Made by a program: the position numbers and the translations under genes. A stretch of DNA of 64,000 nucleotides from the IMG/VR virus record IMGVR_UViG_2671180921_000012. One strand, given 5' to 3'. Numbering within the stretch: position 1 is the stretch's first letter; each line of letters begins with the position of its first letter. Positions 46,822 through 56,426 of the stretch are shown in pieces. The DNA is from a virus (Duplodnaviria > Heunggongvirae > Uroviricota > Caudoviricetes). The notes beneath the pieces are model-generated. The model did no database searches. It saw only the letters and a list, made by a program, of their open reading frames with translations, and was not told the DNA's origin.

Positions 46822-47328
46822 TTGAGTATTTTCAATAAACACGCACACCAGGAACGTCCGTACATCGTCATAGTAGATATTGATGGGACGATATCAGAGG
46901 CAACGGAAGACAGACTGCATTTACTTCCACCACCTGGCAAAGGTGCATTAACAGAGCACTGGAACGAGTTTAACCTTGCCTGTGACACTGATGCTCCCAT
47001 CACTCCAGTTATTGATATGGTGCGCCAGTTGTCCGGCATTTACACCCTCTGGTTTGTAACCGGGCGCTGTGAGATAGCAAGGGATAAAACACGAGCCTGG
47101 TTGCGTAAGCACGTAACAAATGGGGCGGAGCCTTTGCTATCTATGCGTCCTGCCACCGATGACAGAAATGACGGTCCAGCAAAGATTGATCTCCTGAAGA
47201 AAATTGGTCTAAGTAAAATTGCGTTCGCGCTGGAAGATAAGATTGAAGTGGCGCGTGTTTTCAGGAGTCACGGCGTACTTACGTTAATGGTCAGGGAGTA
47301 TGAAAACGCGCTTCTCCATCAACAATAA
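46822..47328 (+). CDS. HAD-superfamily phosphatase-like protein (168 aa)
   Basis: Motif I IVIVDIDGTI (DxDGT). Confidence 0.5.
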   Translation: MSIFNKHAHQERPYIVIVDIDGTISEATEDRLHLLPPPGKGALTEHWNEFNLACDTDAPITPVIDMVRQLSGIYTLWFVTGRCEIARDKTRAWLRKHVTNGAEPLLSMRPATDDRNDGPAKIDLLKKIGLSKIAFALEDKIEVARVFRSHGVLTLMVREYENALLHQQ

Positions 47329-47344
47329 TTGCTCTAATAAATCT
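47328..47344 (+). promoter_or_regulatory. C1 operator (ATTGCTCTAATAAATCT)
   Basis: 16/17 to consensus; overlaps stop of the HAD-like gene. Confidence 0.65.
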
Positions 47345-47522
47345 TGATTTTTAAAACAGAGAAAGTGAAAATAAAAACATGCCGTAAGGCGCGGCATGTA
47401 TCCAATCAATCACAGGAGCTGAAAATATGAACACGGCATTCAAAATCATTATGGCCGCGATCTATTTCTGGCTGTTCTCTATCACTTTTGGCGGCATCGT
47501 CGCGCATGGGTAAGGGGGATGC

Positions 47523-48251
47523 ATGAAAGGCGAAGTGAAAGAGCGCGGCATGATTTTCAACGATGAGATGGTCCGAGCCATCCTCGAAGGAAGGAAAACG
47601 CAGACGCGGCGGATAATGAAAAATCAGCCTGCGGAAGTTGGTCCAGAAGCACCAGTGATGGTTAGGGAAATTGGTGCAGGTTTTCAGTGGTACGGGGCTG
47701 ATGGTGTAAGCAGTGTTTTCAATTGCCCCTTTGGTATCGTCGGCGATCGAATTTGGGTTCGTGAAACATGGGCGATATTAGGCAATGAAGATGGTTGCAG
47801 TGTGGACTGGAACGACAACCTTTGTCGTGGCGATGAGAAGAACGCAGCAAGGATTTATCGGGCCAGTTGTGAGCAAAAGCCTGGTGATTACGGTTTATGG
47901 TCGATACCCGATGATGCCGACTGGAAACCTCACACTGTGAATGAAAAGTTTGATGGTGGGTGGCGTCCATCAATTCACATGCCGCGCTGGGCATCACGCA
48001 TCCTGTTGGAAATTACCAACGTGCGCGTTGAGCGGTTGAACAATATCAGCGAATGCGATGCAAGGGATGAGGGCGTTCCGCCTGCTGGAAGTTTGCTTCC
48101 TGATCACCCGGGAACATTCCTTACTCCCAAGGGGGATTTCGCAATGGCCAAGGTTGCGTTCCAGCGCCTGTGGGAATCCATCTATGGTGAAGAAAGCTGG
48201 AACGCTAATCCCTGGGTGTGGGTAATCGAGTTTAAGCGCATTCAGGAATAA
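47523..48251 (+). CDS. ASCH/PUA-like domain phage protein (242 aa)
   Basis: N-terminus MIFNDEMVRAILEGRKTQTRRI typical of prophage ASCH-like proteins. Confidence 0.45.
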   Translation: MKGEVKERGMIFNDEMVRAILEGRKTQTRRIMKNQPAEVGPEAPVMVREIGAGFQWYGADGVSSVFNCPFGIVGDRIWVRETWAILGNEDGCSVDWNDNLCRGDEKNAARIYRASCEQKPGDYGLWSIPDDADWKPHTVNEKFDGGWRPSIHMPRWASRILLEITNVRVERLNNISECDARDEGVPPAGSLLPDHPGTFLTPKGDFAMAKVAFQRLWESIYGEESWNANPWVWVIEFKRIQE

Positions 48252-48334: not shown

Positions 48335-48538
48335 ATGACAATCGTAAAAACCCATACCGGTACCGTGATCACCAAAGATGGCCCGAAGGTAAAAAAACTG
48401 CACCAAACAGAGCGGATGTGGGTCGTTGGCAAAAACGAGTTTTACCACAAAGAAACTGGACGCCGCCATTTTGCAGAAAATACGCGCCGCCGACTGCTGT
48501 TAGACACCATCAAGCCTATCGAGGTGAAGCATGTTTAA
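48335..48538 (+). CDS. Hypothetical small protein (67 aa)
   Basis: ORF only. Confidence 0.3.
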   Translation: MTIVKTHTGTVITKDGPKVKKLHQTERMWVVGKNEFYHKETGRRHFAENTRRRLLLDTIKPIEVKHV

Positions 48539-48770
48539 ACAGAACGAAAAAGCTATCGCTCAAATTGCTGATTATATCCCGCGTGCGTGCCGGGGTATGC
48601 AGTTGCAGGAAGCCAAAGCGCGCCTGGAGAAAAAAATTGCGCTCTATATTGATGACGGCTGTGATGCCGCCGTTCTTAACGAGGCGTTCGCACCAGCTCT
48701 TAACAGTCATACTCGGGAGTCTTTTTTTTCGTGCATCGCAGCGCAACTCCACCAAGGAGGCATCCAGTGA
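48531..48770 (+). CDS. Hypothetical small protein (79 aa)
   Basis: Overlapping start with upstream ORF. Confidence 0.3.
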   Translation: MFKQNEKAIAQIADYIPRACRGMQLQEAKARLEKKIALYIDDGCDAAVLNEAFAPALNSHTRESFFSCIAAQLHQGGIQ

Positions 48771-48787
48771 GCAACCGTTTTTACATG

Positions 48788-49411
48788 ATGTGTTTGCGTG
48801 AAACTGTGGGTAATAACGCCTCATTCCATTGCCATAACGGCAATGGTTACAGTTCTGATATCGATCGCGCTCATGTTTACACGCTGGAAGAAGCCCAAAA
48901 AGCCTGGAATTGTGGGCGAGATATCGATCAGCCTGTTTGTGCCGATAGTGTGGATGCAATGGCTGTGTGGCACGTTGATTGCCAGTACATCCCTACAGAA
49001 AGCCTGATTGAGTCAGATTGCACTGCGTATGTGGCCTACAAAAAAGGTAGCTGGAACGGCAACGATGTTTACTGGCTTCAACACGGTGGATTGCCAACCG
49101 ATGACTTCAGTAAAGCAACCATCTTTAGCGTCGCCAACAAAAACGAACCAGGAATAGTTTGGTTGCCATTTTCCATTGCCGATGCAGCAAAGCGGCGGAC
49201 GTTCAATATCAATAATTTTAACCGCAGAACAATGGTTCAGGGCGCAGGTTTGGTCATGCCTGACTGGTTGAAAAAGCAAAACAGAAGAAAGAAGTCGCGA
49301 AGCGGGAAGGTGCGTTGGAATTGTCCGCATTGCGGAAAAATAACCTGGCAGTACAGCCCATATGATTTTGAAGGCTGTAGTGATTACAACTGTGAAGGAT
49401 GGCGAGAATGA
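48788..49411 (+). CDS. Cys-rich protein with C-terminal zinc ribbon (about 207 aa)
   Basis: NCPHCGK...CSDYNC motif. Confidence 0.4.
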   Translation: MCLRETVGNNASFHCHNGNGYSSDIDRAHVYTLEEAQKAWNCGRDIDQPVCADSVDAMAVWHVDCQYIPTESLIESDCTAYVAYKKGSWNGNDVYWLQHGGLPTDDFSKATIFSVANKNEPGIVWLPFSIADAAKRRTFNINNFNRRTMVQGAGLVMPDWLKKQNRRKKSRSGKVRWNCPHCGKITWQYSPYDFEGCSDYNCEGWRE

Positions 49412-50274
49412 CAATTGACTATCAGGTACTGCGTGAGGCGGCAGAAAAGGCAACACCAGACGAATGGGTCGCATTTATTTCGACGGATACTGGTACTTAT
49501 GCGGTGCACACGCCCGGTGATGAACGATGTGAAGACGTTATCAAATGGACCGGCTTTGATGGACAGAAAAATGCAGAGAACAACGCTCGTTATGTTGCCG
49601 CGTTCAACCCAAAGGTTGCACTGGAGCTGCTTGGTGAAATTAAGCGCCTGGAGGACACAAATATTGATGCTATGTGTCGAATTGCAGAGCTTGAGACTAA
49701 TCTCGCGGCGCTGGCAGCGGAGAATGCGGCGCTGAAGGCCGGGGCTATGTATTTCTCATATGGCTCTGAATTTAGTTTCGAGTGTCACAAAACTGCTGAG
49801 GAGGCTATCGCTGCTGCTGAGGCTGCAATTGACGACTATAGAGGCGATGCTTGCGATGGATGGAGCGAAGAGGTCGAAAGCATTTGCTGGGGGGTAATTA
49901 TTCAGCAGGCAACCAAGGTCGGTGAACGCAAGAAGAGGAAATGCGACAGAGTATCACCATGGATTGAAAGAGTTTGTGATTATGAGCTTCGACCTAATGT
50001 CGAAACCCCAGCCACCGATGCTTTCCTGTCTGAAATTCGTGCGGAAGCACGCAACGAGGGGATTAACTATACCGCCAGCCGTCTTGCTGCTGCGTTCAAT
50101 CACGGATTTATCAATAAGTCTTTGCGTGAAGTTTTCGACGTTACACGCATGATTTTGTCAGCGAAAGAAGAGTTGGCTAATGAAGCGCATCCGATTGATG
50201 GCCTGTCTGGTGAATATGCGGAGAAATCCCTTGAAGAATGGGCGGAACAGATTCGCAAAGGAAGCAGCCAGTGA
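49399..50274 (+). CDS. Ea22/Ead-like protein, paralogue 1 (291 aa)
   Basis: N-terminus MTIDYQVLREAAEKATP and central coiled coil; shares ATDAFL...QIRKGS C-terminal module with paralogue 2. Confidence 0.5.
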   Translation: MARMTIDYQVLREAAEKATPDEWVAFISTDTGTYAVHTPGDERCEDVIKWTGFDGQKNAENNARYVAAFNPKVALELLGEIKRLEDTNIDAMCRIAELETNLAALAAENAALKAGAMYFSYGSEFSFECHKTAEEAIAAAEAAIDDYRGDACDGWSEEVESICWGVIIQQATKVGERKKRKCDRVSPWIERVCDYELRPNVETPATDAFLSEIRAEARNEGINYTASRLAAAFNHGFINKSLREVFDVTRMILSAKEELANEAHPIDGLSGEYAEKSLEEWAEQIRKGSSQ

Positions 50275-50561
50275 ATATCGACACGACCGTAACGATCGAT
50301 ACGCTCCTAAATACCGGTCTGGCACTTCTCGGTTGGCTTTACATCATGTCCCGCACATGGCGATGGCTGGGTTCCATTTTCCTAAAACAGTGGAAAAAAC
50401 GGCGCAAACAGGAACTACGCCAGAAGGCATTAGAAGCGTTCTATGACGCATTTGAGCTTAGCCGCATTGAACCAGGTACAACAGCCAGGATAGCGACAAA
50501 AGGCGACCTGATGATAGTGATGTTCCGACAGGAGAGAGCAGAGAAAGGGGAATCAGCATGA
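50271..50561 (+). CDS. Small membrane protein (96 aa, GTG start overlapping upstream stop)
   Basis: Hydrophobic segment LLNTGLALLGWLYIM; GTGA and ATGA overlaps with neighbours. Confidence 0.35.
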   Translation: MNIDTTVTIDTLLNTGLALLGWLYIMSRTWRWLGSIFLKQWKKRRKQELRQKALEAFYDAFELSRIEPGTTARIATKGDLMIVMFRQERAEKGESA

Positions 50562-51292
50562 AATTTTCCAAATTTTCTGAGTTGGTGAATCGTATTTTGT
50601 CCAACAACCACAGCCATCGTCGCGATATGGATGTAACAATCGTTGTTCATTCGCCTGGCAGCATTGGTTCAACACCTTCAGTTGAGGTTCAGTCAATTCA
50701 CGCTGGTTTTGATTGGGATTCCGGGAAAGTGCTTATTTTCCCATCACAGCCACTGACCACGCTAACACCAGAACAGATTACTGATATCACTGATAGTGTG
50801 CGCAAAGGTCAGTCTTGGCACGCATATCAGGAATACAAGAAGCATCAAGAGCAGTTGGAAAAATTGTCGATTGAACTGGATGCCGCAAAACAGCGCATTG
50901 CAGAGCTGGAGGGTAATCGCACGGCGCTGGCAGTGGAGAATGAGCTGGCTCGTAAGGCAGTTCAGGCATTCTGCGATGTTGTTGGCGACAACACCGAGGT
51001 TATCGCTGAGGTGGTTGGGCGAGATGGCGTTCTGGTTATTTTGGAGGCCATGAAGGCAACAGGAAATATGCCAGCCACCGATGCTTTCCTGGCTGAAGTG
51101 CGGGCGCAGGGCGTGGATGCTGCTATAGAAGCTGCAAAAAATCTGGTGGCCCAAGAATATGAGTATAAGGATTTCAAAGCGGCGCAGAGTGATTGCTGTA
51201 TGCACCCTGGTTCAGACCTGGTAGGGAAGGTTGAAATGACTGAGTGGTTAGTTGACTTTGCTGCCCAGCTTCGCAAAGGAGGCAACCAGTGA
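50558..51292 (+). CDS. Ea22/Ead-like protein, paralogue 2 (244 aa)
   Basis: Coiled coil LEKLSIELDAAKQRIAELEGNRTALAVENELA and shared C-terminal module. Confidence 0.5.
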   Translation: MKFSKFSELVNRILSNNHSHRRDMDVTIVVHSPGSIGSTPSVEVQSIHAGFDWDSGKVLIFPSQPLTTLTPEQITDITDSVRKGQSWHAYQEYKKHQEQLEKLSIELDAAKQRIAELEGNRTALAVENELARKAVQAFCDVVGDNTEVIAEVVGRDGVLVILEAMKATGNMPATDAFLAEVRAQGVDAAIEAAKNLVAQEYEYKDFKAAQSDCCMHPGSDLVGKVEMTEWLVDFAAQLRKGGNQ

Positions 51293-51777
51293 GCGAAATT
51301 AATTACCAGGCACTGCGTGAGGCGGCGGAACGTGCAATTCCAGCAATGGAACGCCTGTTAATGTTGCCAGCTGATGATGATTTGTTAAGTGAACAGGAAC
51401 TTAAAGATTACGGTGTGGATATTGATGCGCTCAACGCCTTCAAATTTCTGGCCGGACCAGAAACCGTGCTGGCACTACTGGATGAACGGGAAAGGAACCA
51501 GCAATACATCAAATCCCGCGACCAGGAGAACGAGGATATTGCGCTAACGGTAGGGAAGTTGCGCGTTGAGCTTGAGGCAGAAAAACAGCGGGCAAAGGAT
51601 CTGTTTATGGAAAATGCTCGGCTTAAGTCAGGTATAGCCGGTCTGATACACCTCGGTATTCGATATGCAGATGTTGATGTCATGAAAATTGCTGGAGATG
51701 CCCAGCTTTCTACCCCATGCACTGACAGCATCATAAACAGCATTGCAACAGGCATTCGCATCAACGGAGGTGAGTAG
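51289..51777 (+). CDS. Ea22/Ead-like protein, paralogue 3 (162 aa)
   Basis: N-terminus MSEINYQALREAAERAIP matches paralogue 1 N-terminus. Confidence 0.5.
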   Translation: MSEINYQALREAAERAIPAMERLLMLPADDDLLSEQELKDYGVDIDALNAFKFLAGPETVLALLDERERNQQYIKSRDQENEDIALTVGKLRVELEAEKQRAKDLFMENARLKSGIAGLIHLGIRYADVDVMKIAGDAQLSTPCTDSIINSIATGIRINGGE

Positions 51778-52140
51778 TGCGTGTGGCATGTATTGGCTTG
51801 TTACCGTACCCGACTCGTTTTTGGGCTTCTGCGCTAATTGCAAAGCCACAGGTCCTGATGGCTGACAACATCACCCCAGCACCAAAGCGCCGCCATACCG
51901 GTATTGCAGCGGCACGACGAGCAGCAAAGAGACGCAGGAGAGCAAAGCGATGAAAAACCGTAAAGCAAAGATTCTGTTAGTTCGTAGAAACGCTCCTGGC
52001 GTCTGGCAGTGGGTGAGACTCAGCAACCGACGGATGGGGTTAATGAAACATTACGGGATGATGGATTGTGGTTTTTGCAAAAAGCCCAGCGCGGCGCAAA
52101 ACCGCTGGAAAAACCACTTGCGCACTAAAGGAGAGTGATA

Positions 52141-52655
52141 TGGCGTTAACACACCGCGAACTCTGTCAGATTGCGTACAAGTTCCTTAAGCGCAACGGGT
52201 TCAAGGTTTGTTTTCATGACCGCTTTATAGCTGTAACCAGTACCGGAGAACAGCCAGATGCTATGGGATTCAGAAATTCAGCATCATGCCTGATAGAGGC
52301 GAAATGTTCTCGTGCTGACTTGTTGGCAGATAGAAAAAAGCGTTTTCGTAAAAATCCGTCTCTTGGAATGGGCGACTGGCGATTCTTTATTAGTGAGCCG
52401 GGAATTATTTCAATTGAGGATTTACCACCTGGCTGGGGATTACTTCACGTTGTTAACGGAAGAGTACGGAAAGTACATGGGTGGCCCAAGGGTAATTGCT
52501 GTTGGGGTAATCCTGACGATAAGCCATTTACTGGAAATAAGCAGGTTGAATGCGATTACATGTTATCTGCATTAAGGCGTATGGAGTTGAGAGGGCACCT
52601 TAATGAAATATATGACGGTGTAATTGTTAATAAGAAAGAAGGAAACGCGGCATGA
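52141..52655 (+). CDS. PD-(D/E)xK-like protein (ORF track starts 52068; 171 aa from ATG 52141)
   Basis: DAMGF...LIEAKCSRADL arrangement suggests a restriction-endonuclease-like fold. Confidence 0.35.
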
Positions 52656-53038
52656 TCACTATTACCAAAGAGCGACTGCTGACAATCAAGCAGTGGCGCG
52701 AAACATACGGACCTGGTAGCAACGTTGTACTGCCAGCAGAAGAAGCGGAAGAACTGGCACGGATTGCGCTGGCATCGCTGGAAGCAAAACCAATAGGTGC
52801 TTTCCACATTGCAGAACAGCAGGTCGATGGCACAAGTGACTACATCAAGGATGGGGAGTGGCCTATTGATAATGGAATTATTGAGGTCTACGCCGCTCCA
52901 CCCGTTCCAGTAGTACCGGAAGAAAAACCAATGCCTAATCCTCTTAGCATGTACGCGGTTGATGCTGTTGCCGCTATTGCAGAGGTGAGAGGCTGGAACG
53001 CCTGCCGCGCTGCAATGCTTCAGGGAAAAGGAGAGTGA
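52652..53038 (+). CDS. Hypothetical protein sharing ELARIALASLEA motif with the DUF551-like gene (128 aa)
   Basis: ATGA overlap with upstream gene. Confidence 0.35.
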   Translation: MITITKERLLTIKQWRETYGPGSNVVLPAEEAEELARIALASLEAKPIGAFHIAEQQVDGTSDYIKDGEWPIDNGIIEVYAAPPVPVVPEEKPMPNPLSMYAVDAVAAIAEVRGWNACRAAMLQGKGE

Positions 53039-53039
53039 T

Positions 53040-53249
53040 ATGGCTATTGCCGCAAGTTACACAATGCATCTCTATTGTGACTGCCGCCAGTGTACGGAAG
53101 GTGTATATCCAGTGCCAGACTTCGGTGAGTATATAGGTACGTCATGGGCTGGCTGTGCAAAAGAGGCGCGCAAGGATGGCTGGCGAATAAGCAAAGACAA
53201 AACGCGTGCTTTTGCGCCTGGGCATAAAGTTTTGAGGATTAACAAATGA
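53040..53249 (+). CDS. Small Cys-rich protein (69 aa)
   Basis: CDCRQCTEG motif. Confidence 0.3.
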   Translation: MAIAASYTMHLYCDCRQCTEGVYPVPDFGEYIGTSWAGCAKEARKDGWRISKDKTRAFAPGHKVLRINK

Positions 53250-54193
53250 CCACTATTACCAGAGAACAAGCTCTGAAAATTATTGAGGCAGCCGATGAGG
53301 TTATTAGTGCGCTGGCCGGAACTAACGAGGATGTTCACCCTGGTAGCGATAACATGCTACGCCTGTGGGATGACCTGAATGACCGTTACGCGCCGCCGGA
53401 AATTGTGCGTGAACTGGCACGGATTGTGCTGGCATCGCTGGAAGCCGAGCCTGTTCTGTATCAGTCCTGCACTCGCCCCACCTGGAATAGCGGTGTTCCG
53501 TGGACGGAATGGAAAGAACGAAGTCGTGAGTGCTACGAAGACGATTTGCGCTTTACAGACACGCCTGACCATGCCGGTTGGATATACAAATGTCGAAAAC
53601 TATATACCACTCCGCCAGCGCCGATAGCGTTAGAGGCCATTGAAAACGCAATTGAATACATCCGCAGTATCGCTTTTCACATCGATGAAGACGATTACCA
53701 CGGCAAACATATTGCGTATTTCATGCAGCAAGCATTGGCCTGGCTGGAAGGGCATTCATGCAGCGACGACAGACTGGGTAAAGCCGAGAATCAACCAGTA
53801 CGCGGCAACCAGGCTGCCGAATCCAATCGCGATAATGAGTGGACTGGCAATCCTGATATTGATAACGCCATCATCATGCTCGACCGCATAGATACGCTGG
53901 AAAATTGCGATGATGACCGTATTGAGGCTGTTAAGGCTGTTTTGCGTAGACTGGCTGGCAACTATCCGGTAATTCCGGATGGTTGGATAAGCTGTAGTGA
54001 GCGAATGCCTGAGAACATTCCCGGAAGTTGTAAAGAGTATCTGGTGTTTGATGGGCTTAATAATAAAGTTCATCACGATTACTGGGTTGTCCCTGATGGA
54101 GACAGTGCGCCAGTTGCGTCGTTCTGGAATCATTACGGGGCACATGTAACTCACTGGATGCCTCTACCAGAACCGCCGCAGGAGGCGAAATGA
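53246..54193 (+). CDS. Protein with C-terminal DUF551-like module (315 aa)
   Basis: C-terminal ...FWNHYGAHVTHWMPLPEPP resembles the DUF551 signature. Confidence 0.4.
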   Translation: MTTITREQALKIIEAADEVISALAGTNEDVHPGSDNMLRLWDDLNDRYAPPEIVRELARIVLASLEAEPVLYQSCTRPTWNSGVPWTEWKERSRECYEDDLRFTDTPDHAGWIYKCRKLYTTPPAPIALEAIENAIEYIRSIAFHIDEDDYHGKHIAYFMQQALAWLEGHSCSDDRLGKAENQPVRGNQAAESNRDNEWTGNPDIDNAIIMLDRIDTLENCDDDRIEAVKAVLRRLAGNYPVIPDGWISCSERMPENIPGSCKEYLVFDGLNNKVHHDYWVVPDGDSAPVASFWNHYGAHVTHWMPLPEPPQEAK

Positions 54194-54450
54194 TGGATGT
54201 AAAAGAGAAGGTTTTGCAGGTGATGCGTTCCCGGGCTGCCCTGCAAGATAAAGCTCTCGGCGGGAAATATCCATTCAGGATGGCAACCTGGAATCTGCGG
54301 TTGGCAATGGAGAAGGAATTTCCTGATGAAGAATGGCGTTCGGCAGATTTGCGCAAAATTCTTATGGAGATGGCTAAAGATGGAACAGTATCCAAAGATA
54401 CCCATGCCAGCCGGATTGGTCAGGCGGTATGGAGACTGGAGGTGAGGTAA
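54190..54450 (+). CDS. Hypothetical small protein (86 aa)
   Basis: ATGA overlap with upstream gene. Confidence 0.3.
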   Translation: MMDVKEKVLQVMRSRAALQDKALGGKYPFRMATWNLRLAMEKEFPDEEWRSADLRKILMEMAKDGTVSKDTHASRIGQAVWRLEVR

Positions 54451-54526: not shown

Positions 54527-54760
54527 ATGGGAAAATTAACTTTTGTAGTCGAATTTGAGGATGGCAAAGAGCCACCTGTTAGCGCCAATCTTGATGTTGC
54601 TGGTGGCAGGCTGGTTTCGGTTCTATTTGGTGATTACCGCGACGACTTCTTTCAGCCTGAAGAAGTTGATGTAGTGCGAGAAGCATTAAACGAGCTAAGT
54701 GTTGATAACGATGATGCTCATGCGGAAATCATCAAAAAAATGGAACTGCTAACTCACTAA
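54527..54760 (+). CDS. Hypothetical small acidic protein (77 aa)
   Basis: ORF only. Confidence 0.3.
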   Translation: MGKLTFVVEFEDGKEPPVSANLDVAGGRLVSVLFGDYRDDFFQPEEVDVVREALNELSVDNDDAHAEIIKKMELLTH

Positions 54761-54938: not shown

Positions 54939-55232
54939 ATGTGGAGAGGTAATAATCATGGCAAAAGCCAGATGATACTTACCGAATATAAGCTAGACCA
55001 CAAAACCAATAAATCACGCTCAGTATATTTGCTCCGGCACAATAGCCGCGTAAGAAATACCGTGCTGGAACAAAATCTGACAGTTGAAATGGATAATTGC
55101 GGGGGATTCAAGCCAACAATTTCGCTTGATGATTTTCCTCGTGGTTTAAGCGAAAGAGAAGCAATGCTGAAATTAGCAGAATGGCTACAAAGATTAAGCA
55201 TTGCTATTGAAGATAACTGGTCTGAACCTTAA
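54939..55232 (+). CDS. Hypothetical protein (98 aa; ORF track starts 54843)
   Basis: SD GAGGTAAG before ATG 54939. Confidence 0.3.
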   Translation: MWRGNNHGKSQMILTEYKLDHKTNKSRSVYLLRHNSRVRNTVLEQNLTVEMDNCGGFKPTISLDDFPRGLSEREAMLKLAEWLQRLSIAIEDNWSEP

Positions 55233-55466: not shown

Positions 55467-56090
55467 ATGGCGCAAAAAGAAATGACCAGAATCACTGAAG
55501 AGCGCATATCAGAGATTATTTCCCGTATCGAAATGTATGGTCACGGTGCTGGATATACGGCAGATGAAGTATTGGAAATAGCCCAGCAGATGCTGGCCTT
55601 GAGACAAAAAGAGCAACATGAAAGCAATACGTGTAGATTGAATTTTGAGCAGTGGCTGGAACAGCAACGCGGGAAAATCGATGTGGACTGTGGTTGTGTG
55701 TCCACTGAAACATTCATGCACTGGCTGCGGGTAGCTTACGAGGCTGGCAACTATCCGGATATTCCGGATAGTTCGGCGCAAGCACCAGGGAAGGGGGGCT
55801 TCCCCGGAGAGCGGATTCGAATTAAGCCGCATGTTTACCGTGAACTGGTTAACCGCCTCCACGATACAGCGATCAAGTGTGCTGGCACCCAGCAATTACG
55901 GGAAAGAATTAGCCGCGTTTTGGGCGAAGTTATTACACCAGATCGTCATAAACAAGCCGAGAAAAGCGGTCTGGAAAGGAGTCATCTTGAAGCGGCATTA
56001 AACATTAAACCGGGGCATACGCTAGGTGTCATTGATGCCATGTTGGTTCATGAAATGGCTAAGGCGTTATTGCCACTGGAGGCTGATTAA
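55467..56090 (+). CDS. Hypothetical protein (207 aa)
   Basis: ORF only. Confidence 0.35.
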   Translation: MAQKEMTRITEERISEIISRIEMYGHGAGYTADEVLEIAQQMLALRQKEQHESNTCRLNFEQWLEQQRGKIDVDCGCVSTETFMHWLRVAYEAGNYPDIPDSSAQAPGKGGFPGERIRIKPHVYRELVNRLHDTAIKCAGTQQLRERISRVLGEVITPDRHKQAEKSGLERSHLEAALNIKPGHTLGVIDAMLVHEMAKALLPLEAD

Positions 56091-56153
56091 ATTCCGGATA
56101 AAGCTGATATCTGATCACCATGCTAAAATCCCCTCAATTCACAGAGGGGATTT

Positions 56154-56426
56154 TTGTATATGTTGCGTAGATTTTTAGGTAAAAGCGTTATTGTCGGTGC
56201 GATGTTGGCTATGTCTGGGTGTGCTATGGTGCAATACAATGACGGAGAAAAGGTTAGCATCCAGTCAGATGGTTGGTATGGCCTGGATAGCCTGCAAAAA
56301 ACAGCGGATAAAGCCTGCCAGCAATACGGAAAGTCTAAAGCCGTATATCAGCATAGCGCGAACGCTAACCCTCATCTTGCGCCCGGTTCGGGTGTTCAGA
56401 ATACCATCTGGAAATGTGAGCCTTAA
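56154..56426 (+). CDS. Small lipoprotein (90 aa)
   Basis: Lipobox AMLAMSGC. Confidence 0.45.

Follow-up and report, generated by a model that had tools for sequence, protein, structure and literature searches.

The window analysed here is a 64,000-nucleotide (nt) stretch of DNA from a virus of the Caudoviricetes (IMG/VR record IMGVR_UViG_2671180921_000012), and the subject of this study is a densely packed block of genes within it, which a preliminary description drawn from the letters and their open reading frames (ORFs) had placed at 49399-54450. This 5-kb block has a 100% match in three Escherichia coli plasmids, for example CP088789.1 (91 kb, IncY, non-mobilizable), while hundreds of other plasmids match it in pieces only. 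The annotated neighbourhood in CP088789.1 (tail genes, VRR-NUC, ppp, pap, hot, humD, phd/doc, pdcA/B, lpa, pacA/B and coi) follows the gene order of P1, so the label 'P1-like' used in the preliminary description is right. The block sits between pap and hot when compared with the reference P1 genome (NC_005856), in which that stretch reads pmgT-pmgU-pmgV-upfM/N/O and spans 2.3 kb, against 9.1 kb in the window (47.33-56.43 kb). In a survey of 77 P1-like phage-plasmids, pmgT...humD was one of eight highly variable regions (variable region 8), and in one surveyed element pmgT was replaced by a gene cluster including 'ra22' (PMC9603915). On the evidence set out below, we think it probable that this block forms the central part of an accessory-gene cassette of lambdoid 'ea / exo-xis' type, lodged in the cargo hotspot that lies between pap and hot in a P1-like IncY phage-plasmid.

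Genes were re-called on the plus strand of the window, on which all of the following lie. The first, u1 (47523-48251; 242 amino acids (aa), phrog_874), represents, in intact form, the N-terminal 232 aa of P1 'PmgT'. It is followed by u2 (48335-48538; 67 aa, phrog_1226, of unknown function), u3 (48531-48770; 79 aa, phrog_1344), whose 3' end holds a copy of the D1 linker described below, and u4 (48767-49411; 214 aa, phrog_2457), which has a Cys-rich C-terminus (CPHCG...CSDYNC) and shares 97% identity with an early-left-region ORF of a Shiga toxin (Stx) 2c phage. The block itself opens with g1 (49408-50274; 288 aa), a fusion of an Ead/Ea22 N-terminus to an EaE/Oad2-type C-terminus, and continues with g2 (50271-50561; 96 aa), a DUF4752 protein with a hydrophobic N-terminal segment; g3 (50558-51292; 244 aa), composed of a phrog_6026 N-terminal domain, a coiled coil and an EaE/Oad2-type C-terminal module; g4 (51289-51777; 162 aa), an Ead/Ea22 family member resembling P22 EaD; g5 (51777-51953), a doubtful 58-codon ORF (phrog_13831) with an arginine-rich C-terminus, not annotated by the Prokaryotic Genome Annotation Pipeline (PGAP); and g6 (51950-52138), a 62-aa basic protein that is annotated and has PHROG families. 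The remainder comprises g7 (52140-52655; 171 aa), a predicted PD-(D/E)xK nuclease-fold protein; g8 (52652-53038; 128 aa), which joins a P22 EaA-type N-terminal module (phrog_60, 5117) to an unrelated C-terminus; g9 (53040-53249; 69 aa), Cys-rich and assigned to phrog_926; g10 (53246-54193; 315 aa), a P22 EaA homologue with a C-terminal DUF551; and g11 (54190-54450; 86 aa), an 'eaa protein' according to PGAP (phrog_2814). Three loosely spaced distal genes follow: d1 (54527-54760), d2 (54939-55232) and d3 (55467-56090), the last a third EaA-family (phrog_60) mosaic whose C-terminal half corresponds to P1 'PmgU'. Every PHROG match of the block and flanking proteins is labelled 'unknown function', which agrees with the earlier judgement that these genes are largely uncharacterised, and an NCBIfam scan of ten block proteins returned nothing meaningful.

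The genes from u3 to g11 are packed end to start. Stop and start codons overlap as GTGA at u3/u4 (48767), g1/g2 (50271) and g3/g4 (51289), and as ATGA at u4/g1 (49408), g2/g3 (50558), g5/g6 (51950), g7/g8 (52652), g9/g10 (53246) and g10/g11 (54190); the g4/g5 junction is TAGTG (1-nt overlap), and g6/g7 and g8/g9 are joined by TGAtATG (1-nt spacers). Such 4-nt overlaps occur at 9 of the 12 junctions from u3 to g11; outside this stretch, the annotated 23-kb neighbourhood has them at just 2 of 23 same-strand junctions (Fisher p 1.4e-4), so the tight packing is real and specific to the cassette. Shine-Dalgarno-like AGGA or GGAG motifs stand 5-12 nt upstream of most starts, inside the upstream gene, and this arrangement of overlaps, abutments and spacing fits translational coupling. 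At least eight genes had been described as linked by ATGA or GTGA overlaps, and the nine found here bear that out. The proposed extent of the block held at its end and not at its start: the chain of overlaps ends at 54450 with g11, but begins at the u2/u3 junction (48531), two genes earlier than described, within an operon predicted to run from about 47.3 to 56.15 kb. For g1 itself, a start at 49408 is likelier than one at 49399, given the ATGA overlap and a GAAGGA motif 9-14 nt upstream.

Upstream of u1 lies a 17-bp operator for the P1 repressor C1, Op88/OpmgT (47328-47344, plus strand; ATTGCTCTAATAAATCT), which has one consensus mismatch and overlaps the predicted PpmgT promoters. Scanning the window with the C1 operator consensus gave 13 sites against 0.35 expected, and Op88 is the sole one between 45253 and 59112; the operator and the annotated promoter stretch downstream of it are base-for-base identical to P1. 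Just after d3 stands an intrinsic-terminator-like hairpin (56125-56154, plus strand), an 11-bp stem followed by a T run and the best-scoring candidate in a 10-kb scan. No plus-strand sigma70-like site was found within the pap-hot interval or the operon, and no Rfam family was matched in 46.8-57.0 kb at E<=0.1. Control by a late promoter was dropped as a candidate, since the interval held no site resembling a P1 late promoter modelled on LPhot. From these elements we infer a single C1-repressed operon of ~8.8 kb and ~19 genes that would extend from Op88 (47.33 kb) to the terminator (56.13 kb). Genes placed behind Op88 should be silent in the plasmid prophage and switched on early after derepression or infection. 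The view of this interval as an early-gene block is thus supported, Op88 lying directly upstream and the same genes occupying the pL-driven exo-xis region in lambdoid phages.

Some smaller features lie at the two ends of the predicted operon. Directly after the Op88 promoter comes a GC-rich hairpin (47377-47399), which P1 conserves apart from two substitutions. Read on the minus strand it resembles a terminator and is followed by TTTTATTTT; on the plus strand it would fall in the 5' leader of the operon. Between the promoter and u1 there is also a 28-codon ORF (47427-47513, plus strand; MNTAFKIIMAAIYFWLFSITFGGIVAHG), which has AGGAG as a strong Shine-Dalgarno sequence 8 nt upstream. Reference P1 contains the identical ORF, unannotated. 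Its product could be a small membrane peptide or a leader peptide. Beyond the terminator and before hot, an 88-aa ORF, d4 (56160-56426, plus strand; phrog_7757), has a signal peptide and a lipobox-like LAMSGC motif; found in some P1-like loci only, it is a probable lipoprotein cargo gene.

The block proteins were assigned with Pfam gathering scores of 27 bits for PF13935, 22 bits for PF04448 and 27 bits for PF15944. Two of them exceed the score for Ead_Ea22 (PF13935), g1 with 70.2 bits (aa 2-126) and g4 with 114.5 bits (aa 2-128), and the N-terminal modules they have in common are 32% identical. In g3, by contrast, Pfam found no Ead_Ea22 match at E<=0.1. The three 'Ea22-like paralogues' of the preliminary description therefore do exchange modules as proposed, but only g1 and g4 belong to the Ea22 family in the strict sense, g3 being of EaE/Oad2 type. 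The g1 protein consists of the Ead/Ea22 N-terminal module with its coiled coil (aa 2-126), an insert and an EaE/Oad2-type C-terminal module (aa ~155-288), and shares with g3 a stretch of coiled coil (49 nt, 86%) and the C-terminal module (PATDAFL...RKGxxQ). By blastp against P22, g10 and g8 resemble EaA, g4 resembles EaD (80% identity over 40 aa), and g3 and the C-terminal half of g1 resemble EaE, with EaE and g1 aligning at 35% over 134 aa (75 bits). We extracted the Oad2 sequence from NC_019714 and found 28% identity to g3 over 170 aa. The best family for both Oad2 and EaE is phrog_614 (E-values 8e-53 and 5e-55), which g1 and g3 also match (2e-50 and 3e-25), and all four proteins align over the coiled coil, ETPATDAFLAEVRAQ and a QLRKGxxQ tail. 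A PDB sequence search with g1 as a single sequence gave nothing usable.

This family membership bears on function. A July 2026 preprint reports that HK446 gp27 (Oad2) binds P2 OLD, an abortive-infection nuclease, and inhibits it directly. It describes Oad2 as a relative of P22 EaE that in some cases occurs fused to EaD/Ea22, and proposes recombination-adjacent lambdoid regions as reservoirs of anti-immunity genes (bioRxiv 10.64898/2026.07.10.737580). Through the EaE/Oad2 family, g1 and g3 become candidate counter-defence genes. Ea22 itself has been described as tetrameric and, in Stx phages, as mosaic, its N-terminal segment being followed by a coiled coil and by a C-terminal domain that varies (PMC10834534).

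The EaA-type genes are equally modular. The N-terminal module common to g8 and g10 includes the motif ELARI(A/V)LASLEA, which the preliminary description had already found in two genes and which resides in a repeat of 35 nt whose two copies agree at 34; d3 belongs to this group as a third and weaker member. In g8 the module ends in ELARIALASLEA, and Pfam finds no DUF551 domain there. In g10 it reads ELARIVLASLEA at aa 56-67 and is followed by a central region and a C-terminal DUF551 (PF04448; aa 246-312, 52.5 bits, full-length profile, above the gathering score), which confirms the DUF551-like gene expected in this interval. The g10 protein has >7600 relatives; its AlphaFold2 model (34-sequence alignment) reached a mean predicted local distance difference test score (pLDDT) of 43.8 and gave no usable fold, and PDB searches with g9, g10 and g11 as single sequences gave nothing usable either. 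The g2 protein matches DUF4752 (PF15944) with 143.4 bits over profile positions 1-83 of 84, above the gathering score; a literature search on DUF4752 found nothing.

The clearest enzyme candidate is g7, even though it has no Pfam match at E<=0.1 and no PDB match by single-sequence search. It has 324 close relatives across Enterobacterales prophages, most of them ~171 aa long, and an exhaustive profile search recovered 3258 representatives at 50% identity, mostly from prophages. Its AlphaFold2 model (38-sequence alignment; pLDDT 86.5, predicted template modelling score 0.80) shows the alpha-beta-beta-beta-alpha-beta core of the PD-(D/E)xK superfamily with conserved acidic residues and a lysine: E37, D40, E53 and K55 are invariant in a 40-sequence alignment (34-56% identity). 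Foldseek of the model against viral models retrieved proteins named 'MmcB-like DNA repair protein', and the broader family profile matches 3DNX by sequence (E 2.5e-5). Among 40 distant members, 6 weakly match PF06319 (MmcB-like; best E 2.9e-4) and 5 match Hjc. Since g7 falls below the PF06319 gathering score, only a few relatives match weakly and 3DNX appears at profile level, we regard it as belonging to a related family and not to the MmcB-like family itself. On its modelled fold, profile and invariant residues, g7 is thus a predicted PD-(D/E)xK protein with an intact catalytic-type core, from an uncurated family adjacent to MmcB-like proteins and Hjc, which agrees with the PD-(D/E)xK-like gene first noticed here. 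Variable sites at its three codon positions (4, 6 and 29) show a strong third-position bias, which indicates purifying selection; the same pattern is seen in g9 (5, 3 and 20) and u2 (1, 0 and 9). We also considered g6 and g7 as one frameshifted gene, as phrog_9263 covers both, and rejected this because the stand-alone 171-aa form of g7 is the usual one (1363 sequences in one 90%-identity cluster) and conserved across Enterobacterales, and because g6 and g7 assort independently.

Two further observations concern g7. Three Salmonella proteins (P0091, P0093 and P0104) are natural fusions of an Ead/Ea22 N-terminal module to a g7-type PD-(D/E)xK domain and one distant g7 relative carries DUF551, so these N- and C-terminal modules also recombine in different pairings elsewhere. 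Separately, PLSDB lists neither g7 nor g8 (LQR11_26280 and LQR11_26275) among the genes of the 100%-identical plasmid, though both ORFs are intact.

Outside P1-like elements, the best matches in the phage collection are Stx-converting lambdoid phages, with 92-99% nucleotide identity. In Stx2a and Stx2c phages the same genes, 91-99% identical in nucleotides, stand in the same order between exo or erf and xis. Phage F578 (Stx2a) carries homologues of g9, g10 and g11 in order between exo/bet and xis/int, and the Stx2c phage Stx2_5044 reads u4, a g1/g3 hybrid, g4, g5, an insertion sequence, g6 and g7 (99% aa identity), followed by a g8-type N-terminus joined to another C-terminus, g11, an ASCH gene, a xis-like gene and host sbcB. 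The insertion sequence, which has two transposase ORFs, sits exactly between the g5 and g6 homologues (L085:6648-7861). A P1-like relative carries a lambda Orf63-type DUF1382 gene in the same interval. Collinearity with Stx phages, the Orf63-type gene and the matches to P22 Ea proteins are the grounds on which we assign the block to the lambdoid 'exo-xis / ea' cassette. Of 5426 complete E. coli genomes, 3390 contain fragments of it, mostly on the chromosome and in up to 10 places per genome. Its particular assembly is rare, with >=80% of the block found in one place in 7 of the 5426 genomes and covered in 5 of 797 plasmid records; the possibility that the interval is invariant among P1-like elements is thereby disposed of.

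To follow its variation, we collected 80 P1-like loci from IMG/VR, anchored on pap with a 10-kb flank. Gene presence and absence across these loci is close to independent, as expected of the modular and variable block that had been proposed, and in loci that show both anchors the distance from pap to hot is between 2.3 kb (P1) and 9.5 kb; many loci have hot beyond the 10-kb flank. Breakpoints were approximated by the ends of high-identity alignment blocks (ends of BLAST high-scoring segment pairs, HSPs). By this measure, 36 of 76 breakpoint clusters (47%) fall <=30 bp from a gene boundary, against 17% expected (p 6.5e-10), and intragenic breakpoints fall at domain joints: aa ~111 and ~200 of g1, aa 172 of g3, aa 100 of g4, aa 46 of g8, and aa 56-70 and 246-255 of g10. 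Nine repeat families that make up 17% of the block hold 34 of the 52 clusters within it (p~2e-14).

These short direct repeats mark the joints. The D1 linker, which encodes the ..RKGxxQ tail, a Shine-Dalgarno sequence and a GTGA overlap, has three copies (48738-48772, 50242-50276 and 51260-51294), and breakpoints cluster at the last of them (...CGCAAAGGAGGCAnCCAGTGA). A second junction linker, D17 (52127-52144, AAAGGAGAGTGATATGGC), is identical at 18 of 18 nt to 53027-53044 and forms the g6/g7 and g8/g9 junctions. Within genes, D2 lies in the coiled coil, D4 at the Ea22 N-terminus and D7 at the EaA N-terminus, and D6 (50008-50043; PATDAFL), 89% identical to 51071-51106, marks the start of the EaE/Oad2 C-terminal module, with breakpoints at 50001-50009 and 51068-51076. 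D8 (53953-53984; AGNYPxIPDG) stands just before DUF551 and is 91% identical to 55742-55773 in d3. The ELARI(A/V)LASLEA motif is a recombination joint: it is encoded by D5 (52751-52785), which matches 53411-53445 at 34 of 35 nt between unalignable flanks and has breakpoints at 52782-52792 and 53411. D5 and D17 are identical even at synonymous and non-coding sites beside flanks that cannot be aligned, which points to recent homologous exchange at the joints and not to protein-level constraint alone. The crossover pattern itself is directly observed, and we infer recombination as the mechanism behind it.

The same site accepts quite different genes. In 21 of the 80 P1-like loci, a type I restriction-modification (R-M) system (hsdR, hsdS and hsdM) on the opposite strand replaces the cassette right after pap and is followed by phd/doc or hot (L007, L012, L015, L019, L024-L030, L039, L044, L045, L048, L051, L052, L055, L078, L080 and L081). 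Between loci, hsdR and hsdM are 93-99% identical whereas hsdS is highly divergent (35-45% identity), and one of these systems (L019:10772-17852, minus strand) also includes a PrrC anticodon-nuclease gene. With R-M and PrrC genes found there, the pap-hot site serves as a hotspot for cargo in general and frequently for conflict genes. Two other loci (L056:11201-14836 and L076:11204-14839) have a 1211-aa ORF after pap, with doc directly next; by eye, its N-terminus is invasin/intimin-like.

Reference P1 (L002, NC_005856; locus 13183) differs from the window by a 7.5-kb deletion with endpoints at 48217 and 55736. The junction shows GGGT microhomology and abuts the D8 repeat, whose copy in d3 borders the right-hand endpoint. 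In P1 'pmgT', accordingly, aa 1-232 of u1 run out of frame into the central part of d3, and 'pmgU' starts at a GTG inside d3 and comprises its C-terminal half. Given the deletion, these two 'putative morphogenetic' genes look, from their alignment with the window, like fusion scars. Another locus, L079, is reduced even beyond P1 and has its cassette deleted.

As to the role of the cassette, our tentative reading, held with rather less than even confidence, is that its genes are dispensable early effectors that bind or cut components of the host or of competitors, above all in counter-defence. The proteins are built from interchangeable modules: an EaD/Ea22 N-terminus with coiled coil (g1, g4), EaE/Oad2 (the g1 C-terminus and g3), an EaA N-terminus (g8, g10, d3) and DUF551 (the g10 C-terminus), alongside stand-alone genes such as g7. 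A chain of fourteen ORFs joined by stop-start overlaps or 1-nt spacers, with Shine-Dalgarno sequences inside the last codons of the upstream gene, would be translationally coupled, and the whole would be transcribed from the C1-controlled Op88 promoter to the intrinsic terminator, remaining silent in the prophage and coming on early upon derepression or infection. P1-like plasmids and resident lambdoid prophages re-assort the cassette, the crossovers falling at short conserved nucleotide joints, which sit at gene and domain boundaries. Under this proposal g1 and g3 are candidate inhibitors of OLD-like or other defence nucleases, and the remaining genes may modulate host DNA metabolism and the lysis-lysogeny balance. 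A role in defence or exclusion expressed by the prophage is unlikely, because the operon lies behind a C1 operator and a PADLOC scan of ten block proteins against models of known anti-phage defence systems yielded no match beyond two marginal, partial ones (E 0.0016 and 0.0036).

A bolder and rather unlikely version sees the cassette as a combinatorial counter-defence toolkit, in which constant N-terminal scaffolds (the EaD/Ea22 coiled coil and the EaA N-terminal helix) would carry swappable C-terminal target-binding modules (EaE/Oad2-type, DUF551 and others) exchanged at the crossover joints, with g1 and g3 inhibiting OLD-family or related ABC-ATPase/TOPRIM nucleases. If true, P1-like plasmids could keep drawing new specificities from lambdoid prophages in the same cell.

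Several points weigh against the counter-defence proposal or the steps on which it builds. The near-empty PADLOC result offers it no help, reference P1 does without the cassette altogether, and both P1 pmgT-upfO and lambda ea22 were non-essential in CRISPR interference screens (PMC10695390). An HK75 homologue 54% identical to Oad2 is reported to fail to block OLD (bioRxiv 10.64898/2026.07.10.737580), and the specificity for OLD is therefore not transferable to g1 or g3, which are just 35% (g1 to EaE) and 28% (g3 to Oad2) identical to their counterparts. The published phenotype of Ea22 is a pro-lysogenic effect on the lysis-lysogeny balance in lambda and Stx phages, not defence (PMC7093339, PMC10834534). 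With regard to the genes themselves, g5 and g6 are open in all variants but lack the third-position bias seen in g7, g9 and u2 (variable sites 4, 4, 6 and 13, 13, 14), and in the RefSeq relative p1gmyPossum (L089:4415-4593) the annotation marks the g7 homologue as frameshifted. Lastly, the single operon and its translational coupling are deduced entirely from consensus scans and spacing, and HSP ends are an imperfect proxy for recombination breakpoints.

That Ea22 phenotype leads to the strongest rival, according to which the cassette serves mainly to adjust host physiology and the lysis-lysogeny or induction decision, and not in counter-defence. We give it a limited chance, and it does not exclude an anti-defence role, the two being compatible. 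In the exo-xis region of lambda and Stx phages, Ea22 is pro-lysogenic while Orf60a, Orf61, Orf63 and Ea8.5 are pro-lytic (PMC7093339, PMC3824215, PMC10834534); g1 and g4 are true Ead_Ea22 members, the cassette is collinear with the exo-xis region of Stx phages, and a relative has the Orf63-type DUF1382 gene in the same interval. Furthermore, tolerance of H2O2 and inhibition of DnaA-dependent initiation have been connected with the DUF551 protein YfdS (PMC4776307). P1, however, governs lysogeny through C1/Coi/Ant and not CI/CII and may therefore have no lambda-specific targets; the C-terminal domains of the Ea22 proteins here are unlike that of lambda, and such extreme combinatorial turnover is more typical of conflict genes than of core regulators.

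It is improbable that the cassette supplies auxiliary DNA recombination, repair or replication functions, with g7 as a structure-specific nuclease acting together with hot (Pol III theta) and humD in P1 and with exo/bet or erf in lambdoids. The intact PD-(D/E)xK core of g7, close to MmcB and the Hjc resolvases, speaks for this possibility, as does the constant position of the cassette beside recombination genes in lambdoid phages and beside hot/humD in P1-like elements, but g7 alone has a DNA-enzyme fold, the other modules having no recognisable catalytic domain, and it is present in only about a third of cassettes, in one as a pseudogene, within a gene set that the P1 and lambda screens scored as non-essential. 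Least probable of all is that the block is hitch-hiking DNA without function, acquired by P1-like plasmids through recombination with resident lambdoid prophages and on its way to loss. In favour are the deletions in reference P1 and L079, content that differs in almost every element, dispensability in laboratory screens, the missing coding signature of g5 and g6 and the one frameshifted g7. Against it stand the ORFs of the window, all intact, tightly packed and with Shine-Dalgarno sequences ahead of them, together with the clear purifying selection seen in g7, g9 and u2, and the retention of some version of the cassette behind a conserved regulated promoter in most sampled P1-like loci.

With the counter-defence proposal as the preferred one, the findings are incremental and overturn no current ideas. 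The pap-hot interval was already listed as variable and its content left as 'hypothetical proteins'; added here are the lambdoid exo-xis/P22-ea identity of that content under P1 C1 control, its exchange with Stx prophages at near-identical sequence, a map of recombination joints, the MmcB-like nuclease assignment of g7 and the EaE/Oad2 assignment of g1 and g3. These three genes are concrete candidates from a gene set found in ~60% of complete E. coli genomes, and P1 pmgT and pmgU would need to be reread as deletion scars and not as 'morphogenetic' genes.

Compared with known systems, the parts of the cassette are familiar and their combination is not. Caulobacter MmcB is an SOS-regulated PD-(D/E)xK repair endonuclease (PMC9578287), and g7 differs from MmcB-like/DUF1052 proteins (PF06319; 3DNX) and from Hjc in that it lies below the Pfam threshold for both and belongs to a large separate group. 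Both g3 and the C-terminal half of g1 share with Oad2 and EaE the phrog_614 family, the coiled-coil LAxEN stretch, ETPATDAFLAEVRAQ and the QLRKGxxQ tail, and g1 is the EaD/Ea22-EaE fusion type mentioned in the Oad2 preprint (bioRxiv 10.64898/2026.07.10.737580), yet at 28-35% identity and with different N-terminal regions any anti-OLD activity of g1 or g3 is putative. Like lambda Ea22, g1 and g4 have the Ead_Ea22 N-terminal segment and coiled coil, a constant N-terminal part on which the C-terminal domain is swappable, but their C-terminal domains are unrelated to the lambda one, known from a nuclear magnetic resonance structure, so the likeness is one of domain layout alone. Reference P1 has the same position, upstream operator, promoter and first gene, with 2.3 kb in place of 9.1 kb. 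The closest counterparts are the exo-xis region of lambda and Stx phages (ea22, orf60a, orf61, orf63, ea8.5) and the P22 ea genes (eaA-eaI), which agree with the cassette in their Ead/Ea22, EaE and EaA/DUF551 families, in the Orf63 family carried by relatives, in gene order, in 91-99% nucleotide identity to Stx phages, and in forming a non-essential, mosaic, tightly overlapped operon with predicted early expression. The cassette in the window stands apart from them in being under the C1 operator Op88 and not pL/N, in being flanked by pap and hot and not by exo/erf and xis, and in its rare combination of modules (>=80% of the block in 7 of 5426 E. coli genomes). It is, in sum, one more mosaic early accessory cassette, a type of region already known, in a hotspot whose variability had been described before.

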